Source: a virus
Lineage: Duplodnaviria > Heunggongvirae > Uroviricota > Caudoviricetes
Length of the DNA stretch: 40,519 bases
Reading direction: 5' to 3' (one strand)
Virus record (IMG/VR): IMGVR_UViG_2529293139_000011
Both the position numbers and the translations under genes were made by a program. This document shows positions 1,009 through 40,519 of the stretch, in pieces. Position 1 is the stretch's first letter, and each line of letters opens with the position of its first letter. The notes beneath the pieces were generated by a model. That model made no database searches. It worked only from the letters and a program-made list of their open reading frames with translations, and had not been told where the DNA came from.

Positions 1009-1083
1009 GTCCTCTTAGTTAAATGGATATAACGAGCCCCTCCTAAGGGCTAATTGCAGGTTCGATTCCTGCAGGGGACACCA
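1009..1083 (+). tRNA. argW: tRNA-Arg (anticodon CCU)
   Basis: 75-nt sequence GTCCTCTTAGTTAAATGGATATAACGAGCCCCTCCTAAGGGCTAATTGCAGGTTCGATTCCTGCAGGGGACACCA; acceptor stem GTCCTCT/AGGGGAC, anticodon loop CT-CCT-AA, T-arm GGTTCGATTCC, 3' CCA. Confidence 0.9.
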
Positions 1084-1178
1084 TTTATCAGTTCGCTCCC
1101 ATCCGTACCAGTCCGCAAAATCCCCTGAATATCAAGCCTTCCGTAGATTCGCAGTTCGTCATGGTTCGCGTCAGATCG

Positions 1179-1244
1179 TTGACAGCCGCACTCCATGACG
1201 GGTAAAAAGTGGATAAAATAATTTTACCCACCGGATTTTTACCC
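1179..1244 (+). promoter_or_regulatory. Putative intS promoter and arm-type binding-site cluster (TTGACA at 1179-1184; GGGTAAAAA at 1200-1208; TTTTACCC at 1222-1229; TTTTTACCC at 1236-1244)
   Basis: Three copies of the TTTTACCC motif (one inverted) packed into the 45 bp directly upstream of the intS ATG, with a -35-like hexamer just before them. Confidence 0.4.
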
Positions 1245-2555: not shown

Positions 2556-2918
2556 ATGTTAAAGCTATTTGCAAAGTACACCTCGATTGGTGTGCTGAAC
2601 ACACTTATACACTGGGTGGTTTTTGGTGTATGTATCTATGCCGCGCATACAAACCAGGCTCTTGCAAACTTCGCAGGTTTCGTTGTGGCTGTGAGCTTTA
2701 GCTTCTTCGCGAATGCAAAATTCACATTCAAGGCATCGACTACAACGATGCGCTACATGTTATATGTCGGGTTCATGGGAACACTGAGTGCTACTGTTGG
2801 ATGGGCTGCTGATAGATGTTCACTTCCTCCAATTGTCACTCTTGTCACCTTCTCCGCCATCAGCCTGGTGTGCGGTTTCGTCTATTCAAAGTTCATTGTC
2901 TTTAGGGATGCGAAATGA
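2556..2918 (+). CDS. gtrA: Bactoprenol-linked glucose translocase (flippase) GtrA
   Basis: 120-aa small membrane protein ([25 protein letters not shown]...), first gene of a gtr operon; its stop overlaps the gtrB start. Confidence 0.85.
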
Positions 2919-3841
2919 AGATATCTCTTGTAGTTCCTGTCTTCAATGAAGAAGAAACGATACCAATTTTCTATAAAGCGGTACGTGAATTCGAAGAGTT
3001 GAAGCCATATGAAGTGGAAATTGTTTTCATAAATGACGGAAGCAAAGACGCTACGGAGTCAATCATTAACGCTCTGGCTGTTTCAGATCCTCTAGTGGTT
3101 CCGCTGTCATTTACACGAAACTTTGGTAAAGAACCAGCATTGTTTGCAGGGTTAGACCATGCAACAGGAGATGCTGTAATTCCAATTGATGTTGACCTGC
3201 AAGATCCGATTGAGGTTATTCCCCATCTGATTGAAAAGTGGCGGGCAGGCGCTGATATGGTGCTTGCTAAGCGATCAGACCGCTCAACCGATGGTCGTCT
3301 GAAGCGAAAAACTGCTGAGTGGTTCTATAAGCTCCACAACAAAATAAGCAATCCAAAGATCGAGGAAAATGTTGGTGATTTCCGGTTAATGAACCGTGAA
3401 GTTGTCGAAAATATTAAGCTCATGCAAGAACGCAACCTATTCATGAAGGGCGTACTGAGTTGGGTTGGAGGAAAGACTGATGTTGTAGAATATGTTCGCG
3501 CCGAACGCGTGGCGGGCAGCACTAAATTCAATGGCTGGAAATTGTGGAATCTAGCGCTTGAAGGGATAACAAGCTTTTCTACTTTCCCACTTCGTATGTG
3601 GACATATATCGGATTTGTTGTTGCAGCAGCTTCATTCTTCTATGGAGCATGGATGATTGCAGATAAAATACTCTGGGGAAATGAAGTGCGTGGTTACCCA
3701 TCGCTACTTGTCTCCGTACTGTTTTTAGGTGGAATTCAATTAATTGGAATAGGCGTGCTCGGGGAGTACATAGGCAGAATTTATATAGAGGTTAAGAATA
3801 GACCTCGTTATATCATAAAGGGCAATAAAAATGATATTTAG
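2915..3841 (+). CDS. gtrB: Bactoprenol glucosyltransferase GtrB (GT2 family)
   Basis: 308-aa [23 protein letters not shown]... with GT2 DXD-type motifs and C-terminal TM helices; overlaps gtrA and the following gene. Confidence 0.85.
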
Positions 3842-5510
3842 GAACAGACATACTCTTTTATCTATATTCGCTATTTTCATGTTGGTATTTCTTGTTGCAT
3901 TAAATACACCAATGCACTCTGATGACTATAGTTATTACTCACGAGGATTGGGGCTTGATGCGCACATTGCAAATTATATGCACTGGAGTGGGAGGATTGT
4001 AGCAGATTACGTATCTACCGGGATGTTGTCGATTGAGGATCATACCCTTAAGGCCCTCGTCAACTCTATAGGTGTAACATCACTTATTGTTCTCATTGCT
4101 GCAATACCTTCTCAATTATGTAAAGTTGAAATCAAACCATTAGTATTAATTGTTGTTTTTGCTTTATATTGGTCATGTAACCCAAATCTAGGACAGAACT
4201 CGTTCTGGGTTGTAGGAAGCGCGAATTACGCCTGGACTACACTATTTGTTTTATGTTTCATCTATTATTTTTTGAAGTGGATTGAAAACCAAAATACGAC
4301 TAAGATAGTTTCGTTATTTATTCTTGGTTTAATAGCAGGCTGCTCAAACGAAAATACCGCTGTAACTATAGCTCCATTGACAGTTGTTGTTGCAATCTCT
4401 TTATTTTACTTTAAAAAAATAAGATGGCAATATGCTTTATTACCAACGATCGGTGTCATTATTGGTTCTGTGACAATTATTCTTTCACCAGGAAACGCAG
4501 CAAGGGCGAAAAATATTGCGTTCGTTGATTGGTATGCAATGCCGTTAGGTGAGAGGCTAATAGAGCACTTTACTCATAGGTTTTGGTTTGCTTTCACATC
4601 CGCATGGCTTGTAATTGGGCTGCTGGTTATCTGTTCAATTGCATCATATGTTTTTTATCGAAGAAAACTACTTTCATTTTCTAATGCTTCATTATTTGCA
4701 TCAATCTCGTTTTTTGGGTGCTTCCTGCTTGCTAATGCCGCATTGGCTGGTGCTCCATACACTCCTCCGCGATCTTTTAGCATAGGGTTCTGTTTCCTTT
4801 TACTTTGCTTCTCCTGCCTTTTCACTTGGATAAATCAACAGGATGGCAAGATAAAAAGCACTTTATCTTACGCTATTTTATTAGTTTCACTAATTAATTT
4901 CATTGGCTCATATTATTTCGTTTATTCCGCTTATAAAAGAACAACGATCCAGCAGACACTTAGGGAGTCGTCGATTAGAGATGGTAGGAGCAATGGTTTG
5001 AAATCTATTTCTATCCCTGATTATTTCTTTACGCATCTTAAGAATTATAACGATAGATATGATAGATTTCATAATGAGGGAAGCTATGGCAGATACTATG
5101 GTATATCCAAAGCGCCATTACAAAAAGCAACCTTTGACTATTCTGGCATAGCATATAAACCAGTTTACAGTAAAGATGTGCCTCTATACGAGCGCGATAA
5201 TATCAAGTCTATTTTCATGTCACCGCAACAACCATTCATCAGTGGGACATTGATACTTGAGATTTCTAACAATATTGATGGGATTTTATCTCGTGATGGT
5301 GGCGTGAAAATCTTCTTACATATTTTAAAATCAGATGGAAGCATCGTTAACAAGGACTTTTTCCCAACTACTATAGAGCTTAATGGTAGATTCTATGCTG
5401 GAGTTGATCTTTCTGGAGTTGATATAAATGACATTAATAGCCTATTGATTGGTACATTCAATATTCATACGCGTCATCGATATACACAAACACAGATAAA
5501 GATTAATTAA
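3831..5510 (+). CDS. Serotype-specific O-antigen glucosyltransferase, GtrC-like (polytopic membrane N-terminal part plus a soluble C-terminal domain)
   Basis: 559-aa ORF in the third position of the gtr operon; strongly hydrophobic N-terminal ~380 aa, AT-rich codon usage typical of acquired gtrC genes; this family is highly variable so exact specificity is unknown. Confidence 0.65.
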
Positions 5511-39994: not shown

Positions 39995-40094
39995 CCTGCA
40001 ACTTGCCGTCAAAGGTGAATAACAATCCTCGCACTCGCGGGGATTTCTTTTATCTGAACTCGCTACGGCGAGTTTTGTTTTATGGAGATGATAA

Positions 40095-40262
40095 ATGCAC
40101 TTCCGAGTCACAGGTGAATGGAATGGAGAACCATTCAACAGAGTTATCGAAGCAGAGGACATCAACGACTGCTATAACCACTGGATGATATGGGCGCAGA
40201 TAGCGCATGCAGACGTAACCAATATTCGAATTGAAGAACTGAAAGAACACCAAGCCGCCTGA
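40095..40262 (+). CDS. Small hypothetical protein
   Basis: 55-aa ORF MHFRVTGEWNGEPFNRVIEAEDINDCYNHWMIWAQIAHADVTNIRIEELKEHQAA with GGAG 7 nt upstream, followed by a terminator. Confidence 0.4.
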   Translation: MHFRVTGEWNGEPFNRVIEAEDINDCYNHWMIWAQIAHADVTNIRIEELKEHQAA

Positions 40263-40276
40263 TGGCGGTTTTTATT
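40254..40276 (+). terminator. Intrinsic terminator (GCCGCC-tgat-GGCGG followed by TTTTTATT)
   Basis: GC hairpin plus T-run overlapping the stop of the preceding small ORF, upstream of torI. Confidence 0.6.
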
Positions 40277-40283
40277 GCCTGAT

Positions 40284-40299
40284 TTGCAGGTTCGATTCC
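40284..40299 (+). repeat. 16-nt direct repeat (TTGCAGGTTCGATTCC) identical to the argW T-arm segment at 1054-1069; candidate att core or att-related site
   Basis: Exact 16-mer match to the tRNA found by eye; lies 19 nt upstream of the torI start. Confidence 0.5.
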
Positions 40300-40318
40300 C
40301 TATTCGGAGATAGCACTC

Positions 40319-40519
40319 ATGCAACACGAACTACAGCCTGATTCACTGGTTGATTTGAAATTCATCATGGCCGATACTGGCTTCGGTAAAACCTTCATCT
40401 ACGACCGGATTAAGTCCGGCGACCTGCCAAAAGCCAAAGTTATCCACGGACGAGCAAGATGGTTATATCGTGACCATTGTGAATTCAAAAATAAGCTCTT
40501 AAGCCGCGCTAATGGGTAA
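40319..40519 (+). CDS. torI: TorI-type excisionase / recombination directionality factor
   Basis: 66-aa ORF MQHELQPDSLVDLKFIMADTGFGKTFIYDRIKSGDLPKAKVIHGRARWLYRDHCEFKNKLLSRANG recognised as E. coli TorI (AlpA/Xis-like winged helix); the window ends at its stop codon. Confidence 0.85.
   Translation: MQHELQPDSLVDLKFIMADTGFGKTFIYDRIKSGDLPKAKVIHGRARWLYRDHCEFKNKLLSRANG

Follow-up and report, generated by a model that had tools for sequence, protein, structure and literature searches.

A conserved box in the torI leader of argW-integrated prophages matches the tRNA arm of attB and lies apart from the right attachment core

The window analysed here, a stretch of 40,519 nucleotides (nt) of Caudoviricetes DNA (IMG/VR virus record IMGVR_UViG_2529293139_000011), carries a P22-like prophage of about 39.5 kb, with HK620, Sf6 and HF4s as relatives, integrated at the tRNA gene argW. 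A 16-nt segment of argW is repeated near the right end of the window, just upstream of torI, the gene for the recombination directionality factor (RDF, or excisionase). Here we show that this second copy is a phage-side box in the torI leader and is no site of crossover, and that, going by close relatives, the prophage reaches past the window to a true attR core that would begin 74 nt after its last base. The box is conserved across the family of argW-targeting integration modules and is identical to the tRNA arm of attB as we delimit it below. Our best guess, which is a tentative one, is that it would serve as an accessory integrase-binding or regulatory site. The features on which the argument turns are the following.

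1054-1069, plus strand: first copy of the 16-mer, within argW, spanning the end of the variable loop, the 5' T-stem, the T-loop and CC; it forms the tRNA-side (B) arm adjoining the att core.
40284-40299, plus strand: second copy of the 16-mer, in the torI leader.
40287-40300, plus strand: conserved T-arm box CAGGTTCGATTCCC, with family consensus CAGGTTCGATTYCC and GTTCGATTYCC as its most invariant part.
40306-40309, plus strand: torI Shine-Dalgarno sequence GGAG, kept in all leaders.
40319-40519, plus strand: torI, whose product is identical to K-12 TorI at 66 of 66 residues.

The 16-mer, TTGCAGGTTCGATTCC, occurs exactly twice in the window, and a search of both strands allowing up to two mismatches returned the same two matches and no others; the expectation by chance is 0.03 hits (100 shuffles), and none of the 100 shuffles gave two or more. 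An earlier note, made from the letters of this DNA alone, had stated that positions 40284-40299 are identical to argW positions 1054-1069 and that what follows the second copy does not continue as a tRNA 3' end, and both statements are borne out. The argW copy lies directly 5' of the published att core CTGCAGGGGACACCAT, with which it overlaps by a single C, whereas the second copy ends 19 nt 5' of the torI start codon and is followed by CTATTCGGAGATAGCACTC and then by the torI ATG at 40319. As a tRNA gene or pseudogene the second copy fails, the 3' T-stem being replaced by CCTAT; ARAGORN found argW as the only tRNA of the window, with nothing at the second copy, and Rfam gave no match there beyond sub-threshold noise.

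The right end of the prophage can be read from close relatives. E. coli PK5074 matches the final 1020 nt of the window at 99.9% identity, and in it CTGCAGGGGACACCAT starts 74 nt past the torI stop codon (L001, 4095-4110) and is followed by dsdC. The comparison with the torI-dsdC interval of K-12 that the earlier note had proposed gives the same arrangement: in MG1655 the core stands beyond torI as pawZ, by annotation a pseudogene of argW, and CPS-53 stops just short of it. UTI89 likewise has torI and a copy of the core (with a 1-nt deletion), and then dsdC. Of the two junction copies of the core, the window has the one in attL, and the one in attR is seen in PK5074 and K-12. This agrees with the 16-nt core duplication described for the KplE1 module (PMC2951348) and with the junctions of prophage Kapi1, where a 17-bp duplication consists of CTGCAGGGGACACCAT plus one base and attP lies between xis and int (PMC8787464). 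The records of the HK620 and Sf6 genomes put the attP core between hkaC or gene 18, the equivalents of torI, and int, and the 16-mer lies within the phage genome, upstream of hkaC or gene 18; the order in the circular phage is the box, 293 bp that hold torI and the P arm, the core, the P' arm and intS. The earlier note had left a choice between a phage-side role for the second copy and an attR core downstream of torI, outside the window, and had placed attP between torI and intS; each of the two alternatives holds, and so does the position of attP. Two small putative open reading frames (ORFs) of the annotations, hkaB of HK620 (L004, 1775-1915) and gene 17 of Sf6 (L005, 1775-1915), extend from the end of torI over the attP core, and integration would split each of them.

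That the right boundary seemed unresolved is explained by where the window was cut, since it closes, as had been noticed before, on the last base of the torI stop codon. Many IMG/VR prophage contigs, for example L039, L040 and L043, stop on the same codon. Gene-boundary trimming systematically strips attR from such IMG/VR prophage calls.

A contrary assignment is on record. The CUS-3 record (CP000711) labels positions 1-16 as 'attL core' and 40192-40207 as 'attR core', both of them TTGCAGGTTCGATTCC, which would make the 16-mer pair the att core, place the exchange in the T-loop segment and leave torI outside the prophage. CUS-3 has its 16-nt direct repeat at the same two places as the window, and an integrase with 99.5% identity. 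However, the prophage end of UTI89 is 100% identical to the end of the CUS-3 record, and torI and the core CTGCAGGGACACCAT come directly after it, so the CUS-3 boundary shuts out both the real attR and the gene for the excisionase. In the HK620 and Sf6 records the 16-mer stands in one contiguous stretch with torI and the CTGCAGGGGACACCAT core; the Kapi1 junctions and KplE1 biochemistry locate the exchange in CTGCAGGGGACACCAT; and in the window the second copy gives way to torI, where a junction would carry the tRNA 3' end. For these relatives the 16-mer is refuted as an att core, and for the window we give that reading virtually no credence. In UTI89 (L303, 2657-2671) the attR core has lost one base, with CTGCAGGGACACCAT in place of CTGCAGGGGACACCAT, and reads CTGCAGGG-ACACCAT; this deletion may be the reason why the CUS-3 record took the other, perfect 16-nt repeat. 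The repeat can thus mislead boundary calling, and in the CUS-3 record it leaves the excisionase outside the 'phage'.

One further arrangement touches on the same question. In E. coli E10 (L425, 2509-2547) torI and the P arm are deleted, and the box and its spacer are joined to the right part of the core, TTGCAGGTTCGATTCCCTATTCG running directly into GGACACCAT; a second, P4-like integrase gene follows (L425, 2721-3911), in what looks like a tandem element at argW. An IntS event between box and core was considered and rejected, since no single register accommodates the junction, which carries one G in excess, and because of that extra G and a microhomology of only GG we treat it as an ordinary deletion.

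We compared the leader across several hundred loci with TorI relatives, drawn from phage records, species-representative genomes and viral contigs. In many argW-targeting modules the box core CAGGTTCGATTYCC stands at a fixed position, ending about 18 nt 5' of the ATG, and it is carried by modules from Escherichia, Salmonella, Citrobacter, Serratia, Erwinia, Pantoea and Edwardsiella. Leaders of the Citrobacter, Serratia, Salmonella and Edwardsiella types have CAGGTTCGATTCCC or CAGGTTCGATTTCC, and further variants read CAAGTTCGATTCCC, CCTGTTCGATTCCC and TCAGTTCGATTCCC. All of 120 sampled matches showed the box and a Shine-Dalgarno sequence followed by a xis gene of the TorI family. The box is better conserved than the xis coding sequence: it is identical at 14 of 14 positions where xis is only 57-60% identical in nucleotides (P about 4e-4 in each case at the coding-sequence rate), and across leaders the sequence immediately upstream of it shows no conservation. 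Among distinct Xis proteins 39 are preceded by the box and 17 are not, and leaders of the L264 type are box-less; some leaders without the box look as though 25 nt had been cleanly deleted between short repeats. Tandem duplicates of the box occur in Erwinia phages and in L132; in the Erwinia phage Midgardsormr38 (L006, 1985-2016) the tandem CAGGTTCGATTCCCgtCAGGTTCGATTCCC has a period of 16 nt, in L132 the period is 14 nt, and L135, L136 and L139 have such a duplication as well.

The E. coli-type leader, TTTTATT(G/A)CCTGATTTGCAGGTTCGATTCCCTATTCGGAGATAGCACTC, is almost invariant, and of 5426 complete E. coli genomes 1404 have leader and torI together. Upstream, four or more unrelated contexts run into the leader about 50 nt 5' of the ATG, within a few bases of a T-run, and with lambda-like phages only the terminator piece is held in common. 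From this convergence it follows that the 16-mer lies at the left edge of an exchangeable integration module. Downstream, the P arm is the same in all relatives, with the xis stop codon overlapping the first of two arm-type sites (ATGGGTAAA-N6-GGGTAAAA) and the core TGCAGGGGAC about 75 nt past that stop. IntS relatives of at least 61% identity in the phage collection all use argW, and the next relatives have at most 38%. There is a second Xis subfamily (MRELRDDSLIDMKFM...AKYFYSQINAGKLP; viral contigs L244-L276, xis at 1501-1701) with arm sites GGGCATAA and P'-arm repeats CATTACC, where TorI-type modules have arm sites GGGTAAAA and P' repeats CAGTTCGC. Both subfamilies have the same leader box and the same TGCAGGGGAC argW core. 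They differ in excisionase and in arm sites, so recognition of the core by integrase is the sole DNA specificity encoded by the module that they have in common.

It is to this specificity that the sequence of the box would point. The attP core reads ATGTC-TGCAGGG-GACAC, an inverted repeat around 7 bp, from which we infer that TGCAGGG would be the overlap region and would be followed by the right half-site GACACCAT. Given this overlap, attB would have as its tRNA B arm GGTTCGATTCC, the very bases that precede TGCAGGG in argW, and these constitute the conserved part of the box. In most lineages the C half-site of attP reads TTCGATGTM; it has TTCGAT in common with the tRNA B site, TTCGATTCC. A recurrent box variant, TTAGAT, parallels the alternation of TTCGAT and TTAGAT in the C sites; among the published TorI sites, by contrast, CG is never lost. 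Among argW-targeting lineages the box does not track small differences in the host: in Edwardsiella it has ACAGG where the core implies GCAGG.

We favour the reading that the box would be an accessory site, bound by the core-binding and catalytic part of IntS, possibly together with the RDF, because it copies the B arm and is kept across modules with differing excisionases and arm sites and the same core specificity. To this reading we give a probability of about 40%; the explanation as a whole we put at even odds. The box would take no part in strand exchange and would act on the expression of torI or on the architecture of attR, for example by keeping torI silent behind the terminator while IntS is present in the lysogen. 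More specifically, the box could be a functional mimic of the B arm to which integrase binds, with a possible bridge to the arm sites some 220 bp away at the torI stop codon, gating torI or shaping attR, a proposal that we regard as doubtful. Integrase is constitutive in the lysogen and the control of excision seems to rest on expression of the RDF alone (PMC2951348), a system that the accessory-site reading fits.

Several observations weigh against an accessory integrase site. Core-type sites are usually weak on their own, as known for lambda Int. Within the prophages of E. coli, box and flanks vary to about the same degree, and the box is dispensable, since 17 Xis lineages are without it, some of them by what look like clean 25-nt deletions. 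That different xis subfamilies have the same leader could be due to recent horizontal exchange and not to selection. Excision in vitro proceeds with a 135-bp attR, amplified with a primer in the 3'-terminal part of torI (window position about 40496), and a 220-bp attL (PMC3509656); the 16-mer lies some 200 bp outside that attR substrate, so it is dispensable for the reaction. Elsewhere in the system the control of integrase uses high-affinity arm-type sites (PMC2951348), and the leader has none.

Some of these points suit equally the possibility that the box is a functionless relic or linker, a fragment of the argW T-arm left by a longer, tRNA-like attP or by an old rearrangement and spread with the module. 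Its place at the extreme left edge of a swappable module, where at least four unrelated contexts join about 50 nt before the ATG, speaks for such an origin; Sf6 labels the region 'bsq2 boundary sequence', near-identical leaders precede the xis genes of two subfamilies, box-less alleles exist and polymorphism within E. coli is similar in box and flanks. Furthermore, loss of the 293 bp between box and core would rebuild the argW 3' end exactly. A relic does not, however, readily account for the 14 of 14 identity beside xis genes that are 57-60% identical and next to upstream sequence that is random, nor for the constant distance between the box and the Shine-Dalgarno sequence, the independent tandem duplications, or those several lineages in which the box departs from the tRNA at one or two positions and yet retains GTTCGATTCC. 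No simple history of integration and excision was found that brings the B arm next to torI: tandem lysogens, aberrant excision and an integration whose target is a tRNA-like attP were each tried, and each needed extra ad hoc deletions. We consider a relic somewhat unlikely.

The remaining alternatives concern the regulation of torI and draw on the anatomy of the module, which is that of the HK620/KplE1/Sf6-type integration module at argW in every defining feature that the window can show. The attL end (argW, core, TorI sites, arm sites and intS) is on the left and torI on the right, so that integrase and excisionase stand at opposite ends of the prophage, as the earlier note had it.

1009-1083, plus strand: argW, tRNA-Arg(CCU), the integration target (attL side); sole tRNA gene of the window (ARAGORN).
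1069-1084, plus strand: attL copy of the published 16-nt core CTGCAGGGGACACCAT; single occurrence in the window.
1089-1096, plus strand: TorI site I1, CAGTTCGC.
1109-1116, plus strand: TorI site I2, CAGTCCGC.
1152-1159, plus strand: TorI site I3, CAGTTCGT.
1162-1169, plus strand: TorI site I4, TGGTTCGC.
1172-1179, plus strand: TorI site I5, CAGATCGT; all five sites are in attL, with the published spacing and pentamers.
1179-1184, plus strand: -35 element TTGACA of PintS, by comparison with the published sequence (PMC2951348).
1200-1208, 1211-1219 and within 1222-1244, plus strand: IntS arm-type P' sites with TAAA, respectively GGGTAAAAA, GGATAAAAT, and TTTTACCC with TTTTTACCC (PMC2951348).
1245-2402, plus strand: intS, P4-type tyrosine integrase of 385 amino acids (aa), transcribed away from argW; start as in the CUS-3 annotation.
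40095-40262, plus strand: ORF of 55 aa, with which the preceding (early-left) module closes; annotated in PK5074 as hypothetical protein WP_000545722.
40255-40273, plus strand: terminator-like hairpin CCGCC-TGAT-GGCGG with a T5 run, from folding; upstream contexts join the leader here.
40275-40287, plus strand: TTGC-N5-TTGC; in HK620, the cII binding site of the 'phage integration' promoter.
40514-40519, plus strand: opening bases of the first IntS arm-type P site (GGGTAAAAT), which the window end truncates and the L001 sequence completes.

The second P arm site and the attR core fall outside the window, where the equivalent of the core would be 40593-40608. On attL the TorI sites are known to be spaced 8+12+8 and 8+2+8+2+8 with pentamers GTTCG, GTCCG and GATCG (PMC2951348), and positions 1089-1244 hold, as published, five TorI sites and TAAA-containing arm-type sites that overlap PintS (PMC2951348). 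In the P' arm, left of site I3, GTAGATTCGCAG at 1143-1154 is similar to the C half-site of attP taken with the first bases of the overlap (GTAGATGTCTGCAG), a likeness confined to the E. coli lineage that may be due to chance. At the amino acid level IntS is 99.5% identical to the CUS-3 integrase and about 99% to those of HF4s, Louie and Kapi1. Two more terminator-like hairpins, at 40024-40045 and 40056-40075, stand back to back 5' of the 55-aa ORF, so that with the third (40255-40268) the approach to torI is heavily insulated. The first base of the window is the A of the ATG of a 310-aa ORF upstream of argW (1-933), and 3' of intS (2556-5510) lie three ORFs of 120, 308 and 559 aa, at a place where relatives have O-antigen modification (gtr-like) genes.

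TorI itself might bind the box. As an RDF operator the box would bind TorI at GTTCG and torI would be autoregulated, on the model of the repression of PintS by TorI through sites I4 and I5. GTTCG is the pentamer whose mutation abolishes the action of TorI on attL (PMC2951348), and in a comparison with the TorI-site 8-mer YAGTTCGY the box offers AGGTTCGA, which agrees with site I4 (TGGTTCGC) in 6 of its 8 bases; L133 and L134 carry CAGTTCGAT. Leaders of the L259 type carry TCATTACC, the repeat of their own P' arm, once more about 10 nt 5' of the box, which suggests that RDF sites are possible in xis leaders. RDFs that double as regulators of transcription have precedents in P2 Cox, 186 Apl, P4 Vis and the action of TorI on PintS, and these are recombination proteins that bind outside the minimal att site to control genes of the module (PMC7498355; PMC2951348). 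Their operators, however, are arrays of RDF sites one helical turn apart, whereas the leader has a single putative box that resembles the B core arm of integrase, and no array with a 10- or 20-bp phase. The second Xis subfamily, with CATTACC and not GTTCG as its P'-arm repeats, has an unaltered box; the conservation of the box extends across ATTCCC, which is no feature of a TorI site; and in the recurrent variant GTTAG the CG common to all five mapped TorI sites is lost. We regard an operator as decidedly improbable.

The leader has also been read as a promoter, and the box would then be part of a cII-dependent 'pI' promoter with its start near or after the torI Shine-Dalgarno sequence, int being made without torI as lysogeny is established. 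The position speaks for this, lambda pI lying likewise just upstream of the start of xis, after a terminator. Against it, the canonical cII site is TTGC-N6-TTGC straddling the -35 region, and the spacing here is N5. In GenBank the HK620 authors annotated a 'phage integration' promoter with the cII site TTGCctgatTTGC, Sf6 has 'pI' there, and the second TTGC is the start of the 16-mer. But TTGC-N5-TTGC is at chance level in the window (2 found, 4 expected), its first TTGC is polymorphic, being TTAC in many E. coli loci, and is missing beyond the E. coli lineage, and the pair is absent from Erwinia, Edwardsiella, Salmonella and Citrobacter leaders that retain the box. A promoter scan gave no sigma-70-like match and no -10 or -35 element, and the leader fails as a lambda-type cII promoter on spacing, on the polymorphic first TTGC and on the lack of a usable -10. 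A promoter of this kind is improbable.

Finally, the box could act as RNA in the 5' untranslated region of torI, as a T-arm mimic or as an anti-Shine-Dalgarno hairpin. Leaders of the Edwardsiella type can form GACAGG-TTCGATTC-CCTGTC, and UUCC is able to pair with GGAG. The stem is not kept in most lineages, however; RNAalifold on 19 diverse leaders returned no consensus structure (0 kcal/mol, 0 pairs), Rfam gave no match, and the single-sequence fold of the leader consists chiefly of the upstream terminator. An RNA element is very improbable.

The module and the repeat are themselves already known; the repeat, present in K-12 and HK620, has been annotated before, in mutually inconsistent ways. 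KplE1 (CPS-53) of K-12 has an identical TorI and an identical core CTGCAGGGGACACCAT, an attL anatomy of five TorI sites, arm sites and PintS that matches the window, the 16-mer upstream of torI as well, and intS and torI likewise at opposite ends. It is, however, a remnant of 10.2 kb (PMC2951348) and not a P22-like prophage of about 39.5 kb, and the gene upstream of its torI leader is a different one. The attP regions of HK620, Sf6 and Kapi1 are 97-98% identical over leader, torI, P arm and core, with the same order of box, torI (hkaC or gene 18), attP core and int and with virion genes related to those of the window; their records show the contiguous attP form, whereas the module of the window is split by integration. 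A full-text literature search for the 16-mer found nothing, and in the accessible literature we found no discussion of the conservation of the box or of its identity with the B arm, and nothing on the control of torI itself.

The boundary question is in itself of little consequence, as the right end is the published attR of KplE1 and HK620. The modest new element is the conservation of the box throughout the family together with its identity to the B arm of attB, as delimited by the overlap proposed above: the torI leader holds a strongly conserved copy of the tRNA arm of the integration target. If the more specific reading of a B-arm mimic bound by integrase is true, the integrase of these prophages would control its own directionality factor through a core-type site.

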